From an uncultured Bacilli bacterium (lineage in GTDB: Bacteria > Bacillota_I > Bacilli_A > RF39 > UBA660): 64,000 nucleotides of DNA. Where the stretch lies: assembly GCA_934091055.1 (NCBI GenBank), contig CAKOKN010000001.1, forward strand, positions 118,642 to 182,641, read 5' to 3'. A program made the position numbers and the translations under genes. Below, in pieces: positions 779-57,957 of the stretch (position 1 is the stretch's first letter; the number at the start of each line of letters is the position of its first letter). Under the pieces are notes generated by a model. The model did not search any database and was not told where the DNA came from. It saw only the letters and a list, made by a program, of their open reading frames with translations.

Positions 779-783
779 AATAT

Positions 784-837
784 CATAAGATAGACTACAG
801 GCTATCTTATGCCTCGGAAGACAAGTGGCTTACGAGG
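784..837. repeat. Paired-hairpin intergenic repeat, copy E1: cataagatag-ACTACAGG-ctatcttatg followed by cctcggaag-ACAAGTGG-cttacgagg
   Basis: Two adjacent perfect hairpins. The loop motifs recur in six other intergenic sites of this window. Confidence 0.6.
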
Positions 838-937
838 AAAAAAAGAAGAAAAAATGTAGAAAAATAGAGAAAGTTATATACATTTTCTTTATTTTTTGTT
901 ATAATTAAACTGTATCATTTTAGGGAGAGTCGATATC

Positions 938-3293: not shown

Positions 3294-3336
3294 GAGAATT
3301 GTAATCTGTAATTTAGAGATGGCAATTCTTTTTTTG
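3294..3336 (+). terminator. Putative intrinsic terminator after ftsZ
   Basis: agaattg...caattct stem followed by T7 run; the loop is long, so strength is uncertain. Confidence 0.35.
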
Positions 3337-3338
3337 TT

Positions 3339-3391
3339 CCTTTCTAACCTGTAGTTTAGAAAGGTTTGATAAAGCCTTGGATCTTTATCAA
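3339..3391. repeat. Paired-hairpin intergenic repeat, copy E2: cctttctaa-CCTGTAGT-ttagaaagg followed by ttgataaag-CCTTGGAT-ctttatcaa
   Basis: The CCTGTAGT loop is the reverse complement of the ACTACAGG loop in E1; same two-hairpin architecture. Confidence 0.5.
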
Positions 3392-3421
3392 AGAAATATT
3401 TTGGGAAATAATTTAGATATT

Positions 3422-5854: not shown

Positions 5855-6730
5855 ATGATTACTAATAAAGAACTTGGTTATGTAACTTCGTGGGCTAATA
5901 AAGTACCATATCCAGGAATTTCTTATGCTAAGATGGCTGCGGATAATTTATCTAATGCTTTTGAGAACTTTAATAAGTACTATAGTGGTAAAGAATATGA
6001 TGTTGTTTTATCTAATGGAGAAGAATTTCTTTTTGAAATTTTAAATATGAATTTATGTCATATGTTAGGTATTGATTATAAGAATTTAAGTGGTCCTTAT
6101 TTTGATACTTTTAGGAAACAAGTTATACCAGATTTTAATGATACTGGTTCTTATGATTTACTTAAAGCTATTATTAATAATATTGATGATGTACTTAACT
6201 ATGACTTTAATATAGGAGGTAAATTACTTAATTATTATCGTATAGTAATTAAATGTGCTATATTTGATAAATTATCTGATTTTGGTAAGTTTAATTTTGG
6301 TGTTATTAATTTTGATAAGAATACTTATATAAATACTTCTAAAAGAAATATAAATAGTAATAGTGAGAAATATTTATATGTACAAAGTAATGAAGGAGTA
6401 GCTCCGTACTTTATGATGGGTATTATACCACAAAATGGATTTAATGCAGAAGAAAGTACTCCGAAGAAGTATGCAGTAGAAACTTTGATGGCTCCAGTTA
6501 ATGCTGATGACTTTTTTAGAGATCAAGAAGTCGTTATTCCAACACAAATACTTGTTACTACTGATAAAGCTATGTCTAGAAAAGAGGCTTCTTCAGAAGA
6601 TAAGATAGCGCTTCTTAATCAATATCGTTCTATTATTAGTTCTTATGGACTTAATAATAGACTTAATATATATGGTGATTACGAAGCAATGTTAGTAAAT
6701 GATATGAAGATTAAGACTAAGAAATTATAA
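5855..6730 (+). CDS. Hypothetical protein (291 aa), no recognisable family
   Basis: Long ORF with strong GGGGG RBS; forms a tight pair with the next ORF. Confidence 0.6.
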   Translation: MITNKELGYVTSWANKVPYPGISYAKMAADNLSNAFENFNKYYSGKEYDVVLSNGEEFLFEILNMNLCHMLGIDYKNLSGPYFDTFRKQVIPDFNDTGSYDLLKAIINNIDDVLNYDFNIGGKLLNYYRIVIKCAIFDKLSDFGKFNFGVINFDKNTYINTSKRNINSNSEKYLYVQSNEGVAPYFMMGIIPQNGFNAEESTPKKYAVETLMAPVNADDFFRDQEVVIPTQILVTTDKAMSRKEASSEDKIALLNQYRSIISSYGLNNRLNIYGDYEAMLVNDMKIKTKKL

Positions 6731-6745
6731 TATTAGGAGGAATAT

Positions 6746-19687: not shown

Positions 19688-20671
19688 TTATCTATGTAAT
19701 CCAACAGTATTTTTTAATAACATATATTTTTCTTTAGCTATTTTACTTGTTTTATCTCTTCCTTCATCTAAGATTGTATCTAATTCACTACTATTTAGTA
19801 TTTGATAATATTTTTCTTGAATAGGGAGTAGGGTATCTGCAATTATTTTAGCTAAGTCTTTTTTAAATGTACCATAGTTACTATCTTTATATTTTTCTTC
19901 TACTTCTTCAATAGTTAGGTCTGTAAGTGATGTATATATGTTTATTAAGTTACTTATACCTTTCTTTGTTTCTGGATTATATTTTATTTCCATTTCTGAG
20001 TCTGTAGTTGCAGACATTATTTTTTTAGTTATAGCTTTTTCATCATCAAGTAAATATATTATACCCTTTGGATTATCTCCGGATTTACTCATCTTTTTAG
20101 TAGGGTCTACTAGATCCATTATTTTAGCTCCATCTTCAGGTATTAATGGTTCTGGTAGTTTAAATACTTCTTTATGGTATTTATTATTTACTCTTCCTGC
20201 TATATTTCTTGCTAGTTCAACGTGTTGTTTTTGGTCTCCTCCTACAGGAATATAATCTGGGTCATATAGTAAGATATCACTAGCCATAAGTATAGGGTAG
20301 GTAAGTAGTCCTGCGGAGAAGTTTTTATGTTTTCTACTCTTATCTTTGAACTGAGTCATTCTACCTAATTCTCCATATGGAGTAAGGCACTCTAATATCC
20401 AAGAAGCATTAGCGTGATATAAATTTTCTGATTGAATAAAAATGGTATTCTTTTTAGGATCTACGCCACAAGCTAGATAAAGTGCAATTAGGCTTTTTAT
20501 ATTTTTTGAAAGTACTTCAGGATCTTGAGGTACGGTAATAGCGTGCATATCTGCGACAAAGATAAAAGATTCGTATTCTTCTTGAAACTTTACCATTTGT
20601 TTGATTGCTCCAATATAGTTACCTAAAGTTATACTGCCACTTGGTTGTAATCCTGTTAATATTCTTTTCAT
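19688..20671 (-). CDS. trpS: Tryptophan--tRNA ligase
   Basis: Class I motifs (TGLQPSG...HLGNY-like ITLGNYIG; KMSKS). Confidence 0.9.
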   Translation of the reverse strand: MKRILTGLQPSGSITLGNYIGAIKQMVKFQEEYESFIFVADMHAITVPQDPEVLSKNIKSLIALYLACGVDPKKNTIFIQSENLYHANASWILECLTPYGELGRMTQFKDKSRKHKNFSAGLLTYPILMASDILLYDPDYIPVGGDQKQHVELARNIAGRVNNKYHKEVFKLPEPLIPEDGAKIMDLVDPTKKMSKSGDNPKGIIYLLDDEKAITKKIMSATTDSEMEIKYNPETKKGISNLINIYTSLTDLTIEEVEEKYKDSNYGTFKKDLAKIIADTLLPIQEKYYQILNSSELDTILDEGRDKTSKIAKEKYMLLKNTVGLHR

Positions 20672-20727: not shown

Positions 20728-20750
20728 TAATATTTTTTTGATAATTTATA

Positions 20751-21233
20751 TTATTCTTTTGGCGATTTATCTAGTTCCTTTAATAATATATTTTTAATAT
20801 AATCTATGTCTGTAAAAAATAGATTTAGACCATTAGATTTTAAAGATAATATATACTTAAAATCGTTTATAATTATTTTTTCAACTGCTGATGACACTTT
20901 TATAAATTTACCATCAATTGTATGTTTACTTTGAATATATTTTTCTAATGTTGGAAATGCATTTTGGATTAAAATAGCTTGCTCTTTTCCGGCTATTTTT
21001 TTAATTAATATTGTTTTGCAAGTTCCATATTTCTTTTTCTTTTTTTCAATAATAATTTTATATTTTTCTATTTTAGTACTTAGTGGAATAAACCATAGCA
21101 TATCTTGATCTTTTATCGCTAAATAAGAAGGTCTAGAGTGACCGTTCTCGTGATTTATCATCAACCCTTTATTATTAATTTTATCGAAAAATTCATCTTT
21201 GATATGATATAAATATCCTGTCTGTGCTTCCAT
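20751..21233 (-). CDS. toxN: Type III toxin-antitoxin toxin, ToxN/AbiQ-family endoribonuclease
   Basis: 160 aa. N-terminal YLYHIKDEFFDK and MLWFIPLSTKIEKY resemble the YxxHVKDEFF / FVPLSSKxEKY signatures I recall for ToxN/AbiQ. AGGAG RBS 7 nt before the ATG. Preceded by terminator plus tandem repeats as in toxIN loci. Confidence 0.75.
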   Translation of the reverse strand: MEAQTGYLYHIKDEFFDKINNKGLMINHENGHSRPSYLAIKDQDMLWFIPLSTKIEKYKIIIEKKKKKYGTCKTILIKKIAGKEQAILIQNAFPTLEKYIQSKHTIDGKFIKVSSAVEKIIINDFKYILSLKSNGLNLFFTDIDYIKNILLKELDKSPKE

Positions 21234-21272
21234 CTGATCAACTCCTGTAGATTTTTTTGCTTAAAATAAATG

Positions 21273-21300
21273 AAAACTCTATTATAACTAACAGAGTTTT
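21273..21300 (-). terminator. Intrinsic terminator between antitoxin repeats and toxN
   Basis: Minus-strand reads AAAACTCT-gttagttataat-AGAGTTTT followed by CATTTATTTT. Position is the same as the toxI/toxN attenuating terminator. Confidence 0.6.
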
Positions 21301-21302
21301 CG

Positions 21303-21410
21303 AACATTTACAACCGAGATCATTTATTACTCGCACCACTCGGAAGCGATTAACATTTCACGACTAGGATCATTTATTACTCGCACCACCTAGAAGCGAT
21401 TAACATTTAT
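21303..21410 (-). ncRNA. toxI: Type III antitoxin RNA (ToxI-like): 2.3 tandem direct repeats of 50 nt
   Basis: Unit gatcatttattactcgcaccacNNNgaagcgattaacatttcacgactag at 21318-21367, repeated at 21368-21410 (2-3 substitutions), plus a partial unit at 21303-21317. Lies between a promoter and the terminator/toxN. Confidence 0.7.
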
Positions 21411-21442
21411 ATTATTATTATACTTTCTCCAAATACAACAGT

Positions 21443-21472
21443 AATATACTATATTTTATAAAAAATGTCAAT
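21443..21472 (-). promoter_or_regulatory. Sigma-A promoter of the toxI-toxN transcript (-35 TTGACA 21467-21472, -10 TATATT 21443-21448)
   Basis: Reverse complement reads TTGACA-18 nt-TATATT immediately upstream of the repeat array. Confidence 0.5.
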
Positions 21473-21587
21473 ATTTTGTCATAAAACAGACAAATTTTTA
21501 TTTGCATTAATATTATATGAAGTTTATTATTTTTTAATCAATAATATTTTGCTTATTCTAAGCATATAATTAGATGGTGATATTGAT

Positions 21588-33945: not shown

Positions 33946-34145
33946 AGCACAACAATCTAATTAGGATCCTTACTTCATAAGCAAGTATTCAACACATAAA
34001 TTGTATTAGCTCCCCTATTTATATCTTTAGTCGGTTTTATACTAAAGATGTCGTATCCTCTAGGCAATTTAATTATATCATAGTCTTAATTTATATTCAA
34101 TATTTTTGATTATATTTGACAATTATTTTACTTAAAGTATTTTTA

Positions 34146-34198
34146 TTTTTGAGACCTCAAGACTCAAAAATACCCCGGAAGACAAAAGGCTTACGGGG
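34146..34198. repeat. Paired-hairpin intergenic repeat, copy E3: tttttgag-ACCTCAAGA-ctcaaaaa TA ccccggaag-ACAAAAGG-cttacgggg
   Basis: Same architecture and flanking TAAT..AAATAAAT tail as copies E5 and E7; lies just 3' of a minus-strand gene. Confidence 0.6.
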
Positions 34199-34217
34199 TA
34201 ATAAAAGATAAATATAA

Positions 34218-46379: not shown

Positions 46380-47474
46380 TTACTTACTACTTCTTTTAAT
46401 TAGTTTAGCGTGAACTACAGTTCTTTCAGTATCAGAGTAGCAAGTACTTAAAGTTAGTATCTTGTCAGAAGTATCTAACTTAGTATTAAAGTTATAGATA
46501 CTTCGACTACTTAAAGTATTTAGAAACTTATTATACTCTTCATCGCTACTAAAATTAGTTGTTATATAATAACTTTCTTCTTTTATTTTATAGACAGAGA
46601 ATATCTGCCAAAGAGTGTTTTCTGTTTCAGTAGATAGTCTTATTATATGATTATCTTTATTAGTAAACCAAGAAGGCTTTAATGTTTTACTAAGAGAACC
46701 AAACATTGTTTTATCTAGTCTACTATGGGCGTATAGAATTGTATTTTTATCTGACATTACACTGTTATTACGATAGTCCATAAATACCCAACCAGCTTCA
46801 TTATATTTTTTGTCATAAGAATGATCTAAGTAATAATCATTGTCTTTGTAGTGAACGAATGGATAGTTAATATTAGTATTATTAACATTGATCCAGCCGA
46901 CAGTATCACTATTCTTAGTTTTTAATTTAGTTATATCAACATCTATTAAAGGGAATGTTATGTAATACCAGTAATCACTTGATTTATCTTTATCTTCATT
47001 TACTAATTCTGTGTTTTCGTCGTCTTTCTTTTCTTTTACTTCAGTGTTATTGTTTAGGCTGTCTACTATATTAGAAGTATTTTTATTGTCCTTACTCCAT
47101 AAGAATATTTTTAAGAGAGAGAAGATAATTACTATTATAAAGAATATTAAAAGAATTGTCCAAAGTAATTTATTCTTCTTTCTTTTTCTATTATGTTTTT
47201 TATGTTCTAAATTATTATTAGATGGTGGTTCAATACTAGAGGTTACTCTAGTTTCTTTTATTTTTCTTAGATCACTTGTAGTAAATAATAGTTCTTCAGT
47301 GTTATTACTATTATTGGTATAAATAGTAGTATCTTCAATATCAAGAGAAGAAATATTATCATTGATATTATTATTTGTTATATCAAGAGGTGGATTATCA
47401 CTACTAGAGGCGTGTCTTGGAGTATAAGTGTTATTATCTTCATTATTATAATCGTTATTCATTTTTATTATCAC
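46380..47474 (-). CDS. srtB: Class B sortase with ~100-aa Asn/Ser-rich cytoplasmic N-terminal extension
   Basis: Catalytic TLSTC (TLxTC) and His in ILYAHSRLDKTMFG; TM at residues ~100-125. Confidence 0.7.
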   Translation of the reverse strand: MIIKMNNDYNNEDNNTYTPRHASSSDNPPLDITNNNINDNISSLDIEDTTIYTNNSNNTEELLFTTSDLRKIKETRVTSSIEPPSNNNLEHKKHNRKRKKNKLLWTILLIFFIIVIIFSLLKIFLWSKDNKNTSNIVDSLNNNTEVKEKKDDENTELVNEDKDKSSDYWYYITFPLIDVDITKLKTKNSDTVGWINVNNTNINYPFVHYKDNDYYLDHSYDKKYNEAGWVFMDYRNNSVMSDKNTILYAHSRLDKTMFGSLSKTLKPSWFTNKDNHIIRLSTETENTLWQIFSVYKIKEESYYITTNFSSDEEYNKFLNTLSSRSIYNFNTKLDTSDKILTLSTCYSDTERTVVHAKLIKRSSK

Positions 47475-47573
47475 CTTAATATAATTATACTAATTTTTTT
47501 ATATATTGACAAGTGATAAAAAGAAAAACTCTCTAATGAGAGTATTTATATTTTATTAATAATTTTTTTATAT

Positions 47574-47630
47574 CCTCTTGAGTCTTAGGTCTCAAGAGGT
47601 ATTTTATAGCCTTATTCTAAGTCTATAAAA
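47574..47630. repeat. Paired-hairpin intergenic repeat, copy E4 (inverted orientation): cctcttgag-TCTTAGGT-ctcaagagg TA ttttatag-CCTTATTCTAAGT-ctataaaa
   Basis: The reverse complement of copy E5 is near-identical: the second hairpin is 29/29 identical and the first has compensatory stem changes. Confidence 0.7.
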
Positions 47631-47749
47631 TAATATATCATCCATATATATTAAATCGACATCATTCAATATATTAATTGTCCGCAACGTTAAATCATAA
47701 TAATTTCCATTGCCAACTCCTATAACATATAATTTACTCATAAAATTCA

Positions 47750-48292
47750 CTAAATAAATTTGCCTATTTCTTCAATTAAATTTGTATTTTTTTCTACTTT
47801 TATTGTATTTATTCCTAATTGTTTTGCTCCATTGACATTATCAATGTTATCATCAAGGAATAATAGTTCTTTTGAATTGATGTTGTATTTGTTTAATATA
47901 TATTCGTAAAATTCTGAATTAGGTTTTATTTTATGTATCTCAGCAGAGATAATTAAATCATCCAAGTAATCAACATTAAAAGACTCTCCAATAAAATTTC
48001 TTACAAATGATAAGTGATTAGTTGCTATAATAACCTTTACATTTTTATTTTTTTCTTTTACTTTTTTAAATATTTTTCTATCTTTTACTTTATATAATTT
48101 GTCAATTAATGTTTCTGTAATATTCATAATTATTGAATCTTTTTCAATAATTTTTCTTGCTTCAATTAAATAATCTGCATCATTTAAGTTTGGTCCAAAC
48201 ATTCTTTCTAACTTTTCTTCTATTTCTGATAGTTCTATATCCTTTTCATTAACAAGAACACCAACCAAATCAAATGCAACAACTTTTATCAT
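47750..48292 (-). CDS. HAD superfamily hydrolase
   Basis: Motif I FDLVGVL (DxD variant), motif IV LFLDDNIDNVNGA; GGAGGAATAAAATG RBS. Confidence 0.7.
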   Translation of the reverse strand: MIKVVAFDLVGVLVNEKDIELSEIEEKLERMFGPNLNDADYLIEARKIIEKDSIIMNITETLIDKLYKVKDRKIFKKVKEKNKNVKVIIATNHLSFVRNFIGESFNVDYLDDLIISAEIHKIKPNSEFYEYILNKYNINSKELLFLDDNIDNVNGAKQLGINTIKVEKNTNLIEEIGKFI

Positions 48293-48361
48293 TTTATTCC
48301 TCCATTAATAAATACACAACATAGGGTAAATTTAATTATTTTATTTTTTGATTTTAATAAA

Positions 48362-48547
48362 TTATTTATGTGTGTGGGTTCCACAACCGTCGTAACCCAA
48401 TCCAATTTTATTTCCAAAGGAAATTTTAATTTTTTGGTCTGAAAGTTTTGTTTTTAGATTTTTTACAATATCATTTTTTAATTGCACTTTTTTCACAATA
48501 TACAACTTTTCATCTAATGGGCAAACTTCCCAAAACTTGTAATCCAT
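48362..48547 (-). CDS. Possible small protein (61 aa, CP...CGTH)
   Basis: ORF only; no RBS. Confidence 0.2.
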   Translation of the reverse strand: MDYKFWEVCPLDEKLYIVKKVQLKNDIVKNLKTKLSDQKIKISFGNKIGLGYDGCGTHTHK

Positions 48548-48647
48548 TCTACATTATTTATCATAATAAGTCAATAAATTTCATTAAAAATGCAAGATGA
48601 ATGCATGAGTTTTTTAAACTTGTGTGTTTATCCTGAAAAATATTTTA

Positions 48648-48704
48648 TTTTATAGACTTAGAATAAGGCTATAAAATACCTCTTAAGACCTTAGGCTTAA
48701 GAGG
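48648..48704. repeat. Paired-hairpin intergenic repeat, copy E5: ttttatag-ACTTAGAATAAGG-ctataaaa TA cctcttaag-ACCTTAGG-cttaagagg
   Basis: Immediately 3' of a minus-strand gene, followed by the TAATGAATAATAAATAAAT tail shared with E3 and E7. Confidence 0.7.
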
Positions 48705-48722
48705 TAATGAATAATAAATAAA

Positions 48723-50231
48723 TTATTTACTTACTTTAACAGTTCTTTTTTTAATACTTAAAGCTGCTCCAGCACTAGCAAGAGCTATAGCACTAAGAAT
48801 TAATACTAAGTTGATGTCTGAAGTTTGAGGGTTTTTAGTTTCTGTATTATTACCTTTTGCTTCTACTTTTACGAAGTTCATATATAAAGTAGTATTTTCA
48901 TTGAAAGCTTTAGTAAAGTCAGCTTTTGTTTTAAGTTCTTTATCTAGATAGTAACCTTCTAATTTGTAACCATCTTCTTCTTCACCAATTAGTTTATTTA
49001 GGTCAGCAATAACATCTTCATCAAATGTTGTTTCTTTTGGAACGATTATAGTGTTATATATTGTTGATTCTTTTGTATCGCTTAGTATAGCAGCTAATTT
49101 AATAGATATTGTGTCTTCTGCTAGATATTTATTATCTATTTCATTTGTGAATGAAGCTGTTACTATTGATATTGGTCCAACTCCTTGTTCACTTTCTTGT
49201 AATCCTTTTAATGGCTCTGATATAGATATTGGTGCTATTCCTTCTGGATTAGAGAAATCTCCACCAGTAATTTTAATTACACCAACAGCAGTTTCCTCAT
49301 CACTACCGTATTCTAGGATAGAGTTACCGTTTTTACTTGTGAATATTCCATTTTCGATATACATTTCTACATTTCCATAGTATGACTGTGGATTTGTTTC
49401 AATTTGAATAGTAGAGCCACTTGGATTTATTCCATTTCCATAGTTTTCTGGTCTTGCTACATATGCTCCAGTAGCAGTGAATTCTCCACCTTTAATGTTG
49501 TATGTACCAGATTTTGCTCCGATAGCAGATCCTTCACCAGTTATTTTAGTACCTTCTTCGATGTTCCATACAGCGTTTCCTGCTCCATATAATGCTACAG
49601 CATCTTTTCCTGCAGCGTTAACAGTAGCTCCTGTTTTTACATTAATAACTGGACGATTAGATGTTTCTTTGATATAACCGTTTACTGTTATACCGTTTTC
49701 TGTTGCATTGATTGTTCCTTGGAAGTTTACTACTCCACCGTAACTTTGTGTTGTTGTTCCGTAGAATACTGAAATACCTGTATTTCCGTTTAGAGTTACG
49801 TTTTTACCTACTGTTAATGTAGAATATGGTTCAGTAGTAGAAGTAGTACTAGCCCAAACACTTACAGCAACGTGTCCTTTATGAGTAATAGTACCTGTAC
49901 CAGTAATAGTTAATGATCCATTATCAATTATGATTGATTTGTTTTCTGGTATAGTAAGTTTTCCTTTACTATCTGGTAACATAGTTGGTTCAGTACTAAG
50001 ATTATGACCATTTAAGTCTAATGTTAGTGATTTACCACCTGTTACCATAAGTGAATTACTACCACCTTTATGGTTTTCAATATTGGCAGTTAGTTTGATT
50101 GTGTCTCCACTAGCAGCTGTACTAAATGCATTTATTAATTCAGCATCAGTGCTTGCTGTTAGTTCAGCAGCTTTAACACCTGGAACAAATAGTGCTATAG
50201 CAGCCACAAGAAATAATAATTTCTTTTTCAA
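48723..50231 (-). CDS. Cell-wall-anchored beta-helix-type surface protein with NPQTS sorting signal (sortase B substrate candidate)
   Basis: Signal peptide. Gly/Thr/Asn-rich repeats typical of parallel beta-helix adhesins. C-terminal NPQTS plus hydrophobic segment plus KKRTVKVSK tail. Confidence 0.7.
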   Translation of the reverse strand: MKKKLLFLVAAIALFVPGVKAAELTASTDAELINAFSTAASGDTIKLTANIENHKGGSNSLMVTGGKSLTLDLNGHNLSTEPTMLPDSKGKLTIPENKSIIIDNGSLTITGTGTITHKGHVAVSVWASTTSTTEPYSTLTVGKNVTLNGNTGISVFYGTTTQSYGGVVNFQGTINATENGITVNGYIKETSNRPVINVKTGATVNAAGKDAVALYGAGNAVWNIEEGTKITGEGSAIGAKSGTYNIKGGEFTATGAYVARPENYGNGINPSGSTIQIETNPQSYYGNVEMYIENGIFTSKNGNSILEYGSDEETAVGVIKITGGDFSNPEGIAPISISEPLKGLQESEQGVGPISIVTASFTNEIDNKYLAEDTISIKLAAILSDTKESTIYNTIIVPKETTFDEDVIADLNKLIGEEEDGYKLEGYYLDKELKTKADFTKAFNENTTLYMNFVKVEAKGNNTETKNPQTSDINLVLILSAIALASAGAALSIKKRTVKVSK

Positions 50232-52353: not shown

Positions 52354-52380
52354 AAAGCAGGTAAATATTCCTGCTTTTTT

Positions 52381-52431
52381 CACTACAAGTCTTAGGTCTT
52401 GTAGTGTTATTTTTAGCCTGTAGTCTAAAAA
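52381..52431. repeat. Paired-hairpin intergenic repeat, copy E6: cactacaag-TCTTAGGT-cttgtagtg ... tttttag-CCTGTAGT-ctaaaaa
   Basis: Carries both loop motifs (TCTTAGGT as in E4, CCTGTAGT as in E2); lies between convergent cotZ-like and pheT. Confidence 0.6.
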
Positions 52432-52479
52432 TAATAGATTGGGATTAGTAAAAAAAAATAGAACTTTTAAGGTTCTATT

Positions 52480-56184: not shown

Positions 56185-56390
56185 TCTTTTAAATAGAAAA
56201 AAGGTGATACCATAAAAGGACGAATTATTATCCGCGGTACCACCTTTCTTTATAACTAATGTTATACTTCTTAAAATCTATAACCTGATTAATGGTATAA
56301 AACTAAAGGGTGAATTCGTATTAAATATCTTATTAGGCTTCCACCATTCCTAACTCTCTATAAAGCATCTTTAATATTACTACTTCCTTA
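56185..56390 (-). ncRNA. T-box riboswitch leader (Phe specifier UUC) controlling the small ORF-pheS-pheT operon
   Basis: Minus strand has stem I with AGAGA and ...CGAATTCACCC (UUC then A), T-box sequence AAAGGTGGTACCGCGG (plus 56232-56248) and terminator GGTGGTACC...GGTATCACC followed by T6. Confidence 0.75.
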
Positions 56391-56398
56391 TCTTGGTT

Positions 56399-57208
56399 TT
56401 ATTTATTTCTTTGTTTAATACATTTTAATAATCTTTTTACTTCTTCTGGCTTATTTGTTAATATGTCTTTACCATAATATTCTGAACCAGCTTCTGTACT
56501 TATTCCGTATCTATTAGCATATGAGTTTACGCCCTCTATTAATAGTGTCTTTGGATTAGGTATACTGCTAGTTGTTTTCTTAAATATCTCATCGCTTCCA
56601 AACTTAATTGCGTAGTATGGTTCTACTTTAGTTATATTACTAATTATGCTACTTCTTGTTTGATCTAACATAATGCAACTTAGTTTTAGATCTCCTCCAA
56701 AAATTTCATTTAATAATTTATTGTTTCTATAGTTAAAACGAAATCTTGGTTCTTTTGGCAATTCTTTACTTAATATTTTTACTGTTTCATCTATTATAAA
56801 TGGAGTATCAATTTCTTGTTCTTCAAATAGGGCTAATCTATTTAGATTGTAGATTATACTACTTGATTCTTGCTTTAGTAGTTCAGTGCATAACTGTACA
56901 TCGTTTTGAGCAAACTCCGAGTATGCTATTTCTTCAGGATACATTCTACATATTGCGTGTGATATTTCTGGATCCTCTTTTAGGTAATTATAAGCAAACT
57001 TAAGTTTTCCTTTCATAGGTTTATTAGTTCCATCTATAGCTATTGATTCAATTGCTTTAGCTAAGATATACTTATAAATATTTGCTCCTTTATCTTGCAT
57101 TTTGTATAATTCTTCTGTTGTAGGCATAAATAATTCTTTGTAATTACTCTCACTTTTGGTAAAATCATAATTATTTTTTAATACATCATTTACTTCTTTT
57201 CTAGTCAT
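56399..57208 (-). CDS. Hypothetical protein (269 aa)
   Basis: Long ORF, no family assigned. Confidence 0.5.
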   Translation of the reverse strand: MTRKEVNDVLKNNYDFTKSESNYKELFMPTTEELYKMQDKGANIYKYILAKAIESIAIDGTNKPMKGKLKFAYNYLKEDPEISHAICRMYPEEIAYSEFAQNDVQLCTELLKQESSSIIYNLNRLALFEEQEIDTPFIIDETVKILSKELPKEPRFRFNYRNNKLLNEIFGGDLKLSCIMLDQTRSSIISNITKVEPYYAIKFGSDEIFKKTTSSIPNPKTLLIEGVNSYANRYGISTEAGSEYYGKDILTNKPEEVKRLLKCIKQRNK

Positions 57209-57774: not shown

Positions 57775-57881
57775 AATATCTCCTTTTTACATATGCTATT
57801 TTACCATATTTTTGCTTTTATGTAAACATTTATACTTGTTTTTCTTTAATTATTGCTTTTATACAAAACATAAATAGTTTA

Positions 57882-57941
57882 TTTTAGAGACTTAGGAATA
57901 AGGCTCTAAAATACTCGGGGAAGACCTCAAGGCTTCCCGAG
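57882..57941. repeat. Paired-hairpin intergenic repeat, copy E7: ttttagag-ACTTAGGAATAAGG-ctctaaaa TA ctcggggaag-ACCTCAAGG-cttcccgag
   Basis: Same order, spacer (TA) and AAATAATAAATAAAT tail as E5; 3' of a minus-strand gene. Confidence 0.7.
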
Positions 57942-57957
57942 AAATAATAAATAAATA

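Follow-up and report, generated by a model that had tools for sequence, protein, structure and literature searches.

We analysed a 64,000-nucleotide (nt) stretch of the genome of an uncultured human-gut Bacilli lineage (the whole stretch is hereafter the window; G+C content 27%), in which two inverted copies of a double-hairpin repeat, E4 and E5, bracket a gene for a HAD-family hydrolase between a class B sortase gene and the gene of a sortase B substrate. We favour, at a probability of about 0.55, the reading that the bracketed genes (the cargo) are a decaying fragment of an acquired operon, with a member of the host's own family of double-hairpin, 3'-end repeats on either side. This would be fairly ordinary genome dynamics: we found no evidence that the repeats moved the cargo, and a causal role for them is possible. 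The window was compared with related contigs, denoted here by L-numbers; L004 is 100% identical to it across 10 kb and other strains are ~99% identical. At 90% identity, the FtsZ of the lineage clusters with that of 'Clostridium sp. CAG:302'.

Insertion between the substrate gene and the sortase

The segment from E4 to E5 is an insertion between the stop codon of the substrate gene and an old terminator, since the same spacer occurs in related species without that DNA. The relatives order their genes as pheT, cotZ, yabP, yqfD, substrate and sortase, and in L012, L014 and L018 the gene directly upstream of the sortase codes for a substrate homologue of 506-512 amino acids (aa). The gap between the two genes is only 75-88 bp in L012/L013 and L018 and contains a plain terminator, a T-run and the sortase promoter; core genes of the relatives with this short spacer are ~74-77% identical to those of the window. 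The T-run and promoter of the spacers in L012, L018 and L017 align with window positions 47543-47484. An earlier note on this DNA had placed the segment between the sortase and the NPQTS substrate gene, which the comparison confirms, and had described it as splitting an operon. This last description is too strong, because the sortase keeps its own promoter and the relatives already have an intervening terminator, both of which are retained in the window. Among the relatives found, sortase identity jumps from 93-97% to ~82% with none between; scanning contigs with the sortase retrieved only distant, non-syntenic relatives (L001-L003), which were of no help for a presence/absence comparison.

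The spacer before the sortase takes insertions repeatedly: the cargo fragment in one lineage and an IS3-family element in another, while one strain has additionally gained a second tRNA-synthetase gene behind the sortase. The IS3-family element (HTH_Tnp_1 and rve) lies in the substrate-terminator loop at L014:5560-6960, L016:1-60 and L015:5661-6898, and since it occupies the terminator loop in L014 and L016, the substrate-sortase spacer has been struck more than once. The ends of the element in these two contigs are unrelated to the double-hairpin repeat, and L018, apparently the same species, has the locus without it. The additional synthetase gene, of the class I Trp/Tyr type, is carried by an extra 1.2 kb (L006:7926-9151, corresponding to window ~46351) in a strain 99% identical to the window; this DNA follows the stop codon of the sortase and precedes its terminator, and each of the two junctions shows AAGTTA. 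The window's own tRNA-synt_1b gene is at 19688-20671.

Origin and stepwise decay of the cargo

The source of the cargo would be a gene row like that of L023 and L047 (the same locus in a second assembly), acquired horizontally. In L023, the row comprises genes for a 44-aa peptide, a radical-SAM/SPASM protein, a 209-aa protein, a HelD-like helicase (at the DNA level it matches plasmid genes with the annotation helD), a 182-aa peptidase-like protein (with a papain-like N-terminus judged by eye, the Pfam match not being significant), a HAD protein 96% identical to that of the window and a 240-aa TP_methylase, followed by ftsA-ftsZ-spoIIGA-sigE. BLAST aligned the window with L023 in three blocks (774-875, 89% identity; 994-1201, 95%; 5981-6691, 93%), the homology starting at ~48590 in the window. 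Sequence comparison identifies the cargo as foreign and horizontally acquired, because 12 of the 180 HAD codons differ from those of L023 (4 changes synonymous, 8 non-synonymous), against an ftsZ identity of just 72% between the window and L023/L047. Read from these codons, the pattern means a recent transfer with, apparently, little purifying selection since.

Three microhomology deletions, with junctions in 8-10-nt microhomologies, gave the window's version of the row. A 118-nt deletion, with its junction near 48488-48495, produced the N-terminal extension of a 61-aa open reading frame (ORF), so that this extension is an artefact; the last 43 residues of this ORF are identical to the 44-aa precursor-like peptide of L023 (C-terminus GYDGCGTHTHK), whose gene precedes the radical-SAM/SPASM gene there. 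A deletion of ~4.8 kb relative to L023, joined within two similar ribosome-binding sites (L023 1175-1201 and 5981-6007), removed the radical-SAM/SPASM gene, the 209-aa gene, the HelD-like helicase gene and the 182-aa peptidase-like gene. The methylase was truncated by a deletion at the 8-nt microhomology TAATATAT (47646-47653), a junction read from the sequences. In L026, L027 and L040, which are 96-97% identical to the window, the methylase is whole and E4 follows after ~60 nt. We considered that E4 had inserted into the methylase and broken it, and rejected this since E4 lies ~60 nt downstream in the strains with an intact gene and the truncation is the TAATATAT deletion. In L026/L027, a further in-frame deletion at GAAATAGAA fuses codon 150 of yqfD to codon 23 of the HAD gene and takes out the substrate gene and E5. 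The cargo is thus decaying independently in different strains, as L026/L027 and the window bear different deletions, and the locus is a stepwise record of the decay of an acquired operon through three or four microhomology deletions across strains. The 118-nt stretch missing from the window (L023:876-993), located between the promoter and the precursor-peptide gene, has a GGGAACA...TGTTCCC hairpin with a T-run behind it; a role as attenuator or leader is possible.

The HAD ORF alone, with ~20-95 nt of upstream DNA, also occurs in other settings without the repeats. In L019 it lies between sigE and leuS (91% nucleotide identity), and in L021/L022 it follows a phosphoglucomutase gene and a CYTH-like gene (84% nucleotide identity); the neighbouring core genes of these loci are only 64-75% identical. 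A perfect 34-nt direct repeat (AATAATTAATACCATTTATAAAATAACTATTGAT; L019:5577-5610 and 6699-6732) brackets the HAD gene upstream of leuS, which points to the leader or promoter region of leuS having been duplicated on either side of the inserted gene. A search for a plasmid or phage source of the cargo gave only a weak helD match in Paraclostridium plasmids and none in phages, and viral contigs held no copy of the repeat.

The locus resembles other decaying, horizontally acquired islets in its identity to a distant species far above that of core genes, in its microhomology deletions, in its truncated pseudogene and in the relaxed look of selection on the HAD gene (8 non-synonymous, 4 synonymous changes). 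It differs from them in its site, inside a 75-88-bp spacer of the 3' untranslated region (UTR) upstream of the terminator, and in the native repeats that bracket the insert.

Two inverted copies of one double-hairpin unit

E4 and E5 are inverted copies of a core unit of 65 nt, identical at 60 of 65 positions in an ungapped comparison, so that the coordinates and the geometry given in the earlier note hold. A repeat search of the window stretches the pair to 84 nt at 85% identity (47555-47638 and 48640-48723), with arms 1001 nt apart, and makes it the longest inverted repeat of the window; the extra 19 nt beyond the core are AT-rich and of weak similarity. Hairpin 2 (TTTTATAG-CCTTATTCTAAGT-CTATAAAA) is identical at 29/29 positions, as had been claimed, and lies inside a 34-nt identical run; its 29-mer occurs in the window only at E4 and E5, with 0 occurrences expected in shuffles. 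Hairpin 1 reads CCTCTTGAG-TCTTAGGT-CTCAAGAGG in E4 and CCTCTTAAG-CCTAAGGT-CTTAAGAGG in E5; the stem change is, again as described, compensatory (one pair, G-C to A-T), and is accompanied by two changes in the loop. Both hairpins of E4 and of E5 fold in either orientation (-23 to -24 kcal/mol, z-scores -5 to -6; for E5, -23.3 kcal/mol, z = -5.2). A terminator scan flagged E5 as terminator-like (an 11-bp stem then TTTTATAG), and E4 likewise. The AT-rich 5' extension of E5 runs to 48727 and abuts the stop codon of the substrate gene; E4 follows the cargo and precedes the ancestral terminator.

Both copies stand in AT-rich intergenic DNA, where hairpins are common, and two unrelated terminators might have come to resemble each other by chance. 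We give this practically no credence: it is refuted by the 34-nt identical run, by the 0 matches of the 29-mer in shuffled sequence, by covariance-model E-values of ~1e-18 and by identical units in 12 metagenome contigs.

A repeat family at gene 3' ends

We built a covariance model from 13 copies of the unit and searched it in the window and the related contigs, 358 kb in total. It found 35 copies, including exactly 7 in the window: 780-842 (-), 3334-3396 (+), 34140-34203 (-), E4, E5, 52376-52436 (+) and 57876-57946 (-). The segment is therefore flanked, as the earlier note had proposed, by a dispersed, multi-copy repeat. The family is present in species with core genes ~75% identical to those of the window (L012, L014-L016 and L018), and the same search found no copies in L019, L021-L023 and L047-L049.

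The stems covary: changes on both sides have occurred in 18 of the 23 pairs and pairing is kept in 97.7% of cells, far above shuffled and slid controls, in an alignment that was fitted to the model and so leans toward structure. An apical motif, AG-Y-CT...AG-T-CT with a Y·T mismatch, is kept in both hairpins. In the alignment, copies start with (C/T)CTCTTAAG and finish with CTATAAAATAA; these termini mismatch each other, and the palindromes are the internal hairpins. A loose single-hairpin descriptor (loop YCT...T) was uninformative, giving 61 hits against ~47 in shuffles, and the covariance model was used instead. The apical motif, as AAG-CCT...AGT-CTT, also occurs in some simple terminators of the clade (L014:1644-1674 and window 52448-52478), for example as GAAGAATAAG-CCTTAAAAAGT-CTTATTCTT behind pheT in L014, and so is not confined to the paired element.

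Nearly every copy is at a gene 3' end and about two thirds are in terminator orientation. At 14 of 21 loci the copy is forward, 10-131 nt (mostly <30 nt) past a stop codon on the same strand; the reverse copies, at 7 loci, are mostly also near a gene 3' end, in some cases with the stop codon on one side and a canonical terminator on the other. Orthologous spacers of different species have copies in opposite orientation or none (pheT/cotZ and xseB 3' ends), which indicates turnover of the repeat. Scanning for exact matches to hairpin 2 retrieved 12 metagenome contigs in which the 65-nt unit is complete and has the same stems, in at least 8 unrelated contexts, and the subfamily copies across these contexts are 55-65/65 identical. 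Several of the contigs are probably other loci of the same species, because the same assemblies yield contigs 97% identical to the window. The E5 core is identical at 65/65 positions to a copy behind alaS in L043/L046, with which it also shares 20/25 of its 5' extension; the 5' extensions of E4 and E5 differ from each other. We considered that E4 and E5 had arisen by duplication of a single copy at the time of insertion, and rejected this on both of these grounds.

Rfam 15 gave no match up to an E-value of 1 in 47480-48760, and a literature search found no description of the family, which appears to be undescribed. With its unusually clear stem covariation and conserved apical motifs, it could aid the annotation of terminators in this lineage. 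It could also help to explain assembly breaks and genome plasticity there, several contigs ending exactly at repeats. The ends of L031, L032, L033 and L034 and position 1 of L017 fall within 50-170 nt past the substrate gene or immediately ahead of the promoter of the sortase, and these ends at repeats or the terminator suggest that the family breaks short-read assemblies.

How the repeats and the cargo came together

In the reading that we favour, the cargo came to rest within the 3' untranslated spacer, past the stop codon of the substrate gene and ahead of the old terminator and the sortase promoter, and microhomology-mediated deletions have since removed most of it, leaving a promoter, the peptide ORF, the HAD gene and 32 codons of the methylase. 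The flanking units would belong to the recipient lineage's own dispersed family, as opposed to being transposon ends imported with the cargo. E5, forward and 14 nt past the stop codon, is likely to act as the intrinsic terminator of the substrate gene, with a GC-containing hairpin followed by UAUUUUAU. E4, in reverse at the 3' end of the last cargo gene, could form RNA hairpins without a U-tract, and the old terminator behind it would terminate transcription. Both repeats would have reached these 3'-end sites by the ordinary behaviour of the family, one of them possibly before the cargo, and not by mobilisation of the cargo.

The earlier note had instead taken the repeats for terminal inverted repeats of a transposed or mobilisable unit. 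Under this model, E4 and E5 would form a composite unit like a pair of MITEs (MITE: miniature inverted-repeat transposable element), moved with its cargo by a transposase acting in trans. MITE pairs are known gene mobilisers (PMC10969869), and the repeats are a genuine multi-copy family with near-identical copies at many loci; the edges of the insert match the repeats within 12-50 nt, and other single-gene intervals, in L039/L037 and in L046, are bracketed with the same polarity. Yet the homology of the cargo ends ~12-50 nt inside each repeat, and the cargo is repeat-free in L023/L047 (89-95% identity, with a plain terminator behind the methylase), L019 and L021. The unit was seen at no second site: contigs with an identical HAD protein (17) or substrate protein (15) show the same locus wherever they are long enough, and the strain variants found are deletions, with no empty sites. 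Terminal inverted repeats are lacking in the individual element. Outside E4 and E5 no target-site duplication can be seen, and 10 copies share no common flanking direct repeat, in AT-rich flanks where a duplication of 2-3 nt could hide. E4 and E5, at 60/65, are no closer to each other than other pairs of the subfamily are (55-65/65), and their 5' extensions are not the same. No transposase was found among ten further window ORFs scanned against Pfam. We looked for an inversion of the E4-E5 segment and found the same orientation in all strains. With the cargo occurring repeat-free, no second site and no visible target-site duplication, the proposal of a transposed unit is not supported, and we consider the MITE-pair model unlikely.

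A number of observations weigh against the reading of ordinary arrival that we favour. Both subfamily copies of the window flank its one clearly foreign insert; with a copy at ~13% of 3' ends, two independent arrivals, one at each junction, would have a chance of a few percent. The independent close pairs (copies <3 kb apart) number five, and every one of them is inverted, for which the probability under random orientation is ~1/32, and four of the five have hairpin 1 facing outward, as in E4/E5. These pairs are E4/E5 itself, the dnaG locus (L037/L039/L044), alaS/TetR in L046, a facing pair in L015 with copies 300 nt apart, and ftsA-ftsZ. The interval at the dnaG locus also holds strain-variable cargo, a target gene of a diversity-generating retroelement (DGR) with or without bAvd and a reverse transcriptase. 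The absence of the family from the donor-like species rests on ~19 kb of unique sequence and is thus weakly established. Finally, no pre-insertion genome was found within the species cluster.

In a second alternative, integration would be directed to the repeats or brought about by them, without their being its vehicle: a break site prone to hairpins or cruciforms, or a stretch of portable homology, would capture foreign DNA. A pre-existing copy or a facing pair, as in L015, would suffice, and the intervals within inverted pairs would be insertion hotspots. It would account for the 5/5 inverted pairs, for two intervals (E4-E5 and the dnaG locus) with foreign or strain-variable cargo, for a copy in L038 exactly at a synteny breakpoint and for the IS3-family element gained inside the terminator loop of the same spacer in other species. 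The sample is small, however, and orientation is confounded with gene direction within it. Survivorship could explain the pattern also: pairs in direct orientation tend to delete the intervening DNA, which may be why the surviving close pairs are inverted. Further, no pre-insertion doublet was found at the site. The ftsA-ftsZ pair brackets core genes, which tells against this alternative and against a transposed unit. On balance we regard this alternative as rather unlikely. The most far-reaching version of it is distinctly improbable in our view: facing inverted pairs could define small 3' UTR landing pads that capture or exchange foreign or accessory genes, that is, a repeat-bounded cassette system, whose driver might be a hairpin-recognising enzyme reading the AG-Y-CT/AG-T-CT mismatch motif. 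What probability it has comes from the 5/5 inverted close pairs, the two variable-cargo intervals and the L038 breakpoint copy. Unless the repeats have a causal role in gene capture, the general understanding is unchanged.

Comparison with known repeat systems

By analogy, the closest known family would be SPRITE, and REP elements would also be similar. Pneumococcal SPRITE (2011, PMC3049150) shares with the present family its small size, AT-rich composition and dispersal in Firmicutes, a stem followed by a U-rich tract near gene 3' ends, a plausible co-option as terminator, restriction to a lineage, and the lack of a matching insertion sequence or established target duplication. In contrast to SPRITE, the present element is a pair of adjoining hairpins in which the U-tract behind the first one serves as the 5' arm of the second, and its stems covary across subfamilies while the AG-Y-CT...AG-T-CT motif with the Y·T mismatch stays. 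There is no sequence similarity, the likeness is one of kind only, and about a third of the present copies are in non-terminator orientation. The proteobacterial REP, BIME and REPIN elements are likewise extragenic imperfect palindromes at gene 3' ends, in many copies and often in inverted pairs, with a conserved stem mismatch, and may stabilise mRNA or contribute to termination. The present family differs from REP/REPIN in having no conserved 5' GTAG, in the absence of REPIN-like tight doublets among the copies seen and in its host, a low-GC member of the Bacillota; no gene for a RAYT (a Y1 transposase) was found among the scanned window ORFs.

Like MITEs, the repeats are dispersed in many copies, and near-identical ones turn up in unrelated contexts. 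The MITE-flanked cassettes of Acinetobacter, integrons with identical MITEs (PMC10969869), also have two small non-coding repeats that bracket acquired genes. Those MITEs differ in that they end in terminal inverted repeats, that a target-site duplication encloses the unit and that the same unit recurs in different contexts, none of which was found here. Two hairpins with a shared apical motif and a Y·T mismatch would fit the IS200/IS605 family, whereas no constant flanking tetranucleotide was seen and no TnpA was found among the scanned window ORFs. The copies differ from integron cassettes and attC sites in being inverted, without a GTTRRRY core and without an integrase nearby.

Features of the locus and variation at other sites

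The features of the locus are collected in Table 1; its genes, from the substrate gene through the sortase, are all on the minus strand. The gene content agrees with the earlier note (HAD gene, 61-aa ORF, sortase and NPQTS gene), in which the methylase remnant had been overlooked.

Table 1. Features at the E4-E5 locus, in window coordinates
Feature	Position	Strand	Remarks
Sortase B substrate gene	48723-50231	-	502 aa; C-terminal NPQTS, hydrophobic segment and basic tail (translation)
E5	48640-48704	-	Covariance-model hit, 93.4 bits; double-hairpin repeat, forward-oriented
Promoter-like site of the cargo	48546-48574	-	TTGACT-17-TAGAAT; common to L023
61-aa ORF	48362-48547	-	Translation and alignment
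Deletion junction at ribosome-binding site	48283-48314	-	Start of the HAD gene fused to the DNA that lay upstream of the radical-SAM gene
HAD-family hydrolase gene	47750-48292	-	180 aa, intact, YihX-like DxxGN/V type; Pfam HAD_2/Hydrolase
TP_methylase 5' remnant	47646-47741	-	32 codons; abuts E4; aligns to the 240-243-aa TP_methylases of L023 and L026
E4	47574-47638	+	Covariance-model hit, 94.5 bits; reverse relative to the minus-strand genes
Ancestral spacer terminator	47518-47543	-	ACTCTC-ATTA-GAGAGT then TTTTCTTTTT; flagged terminator-like
Sortase promoter-like site	47484-47512	-	TTGTCA-17-TATAAT, 11/12 match; kept in relatives
Class B sortase gene	46380-47474	-	Pfam Sortase; one cluster member called 'class B sortase' by NCBI

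The DNA upstream of dnaG at L044:302-4021 (also L037:3424-5034, L038:30-1646 and L039:140-1588) looks like a DGR. In L044, it consists of genes for a 534-aa secreted protein with a weak DUF6273 C-terminus, a bAvd-like gene of 114 aa and a 456-aa reverse transcriptase, and sits between a forward and a reverse copy of the repeat. L037 has the target-like gene only, and in L035 most of this gene is deleted. We considered L035 as an empty site for the cassette at this locus and rejected it, as it has an internal deletion of a 536-aa gene.

L038, which is 97% identical to the window, has its breakpoint copy of the repeat at 1660-1732, corresponding to window ~16465. Upstream of the breakpoint, L038 has a DGR-target-like gene of 538 aa and the window has DUF2207 and YgjP-like genes. 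A further ~800 bp of the window (20737-21531) is missing from L038, with flanks 97% identical. This stretch holds a 160-aa ORF (20751-21233, minus strand) with no Pfam match, a perfect hairpin of 9 bp (21272-21301) and a tandem pair of 50-nt repeats that are 84% identical (21307-21406). The window's only Rfam hit at gathering level is an ordinary T-box leader at 56213-56403 (minus strand, 94.5 bits), upstream of a 117-aa ORF and the pheS/pheT region.

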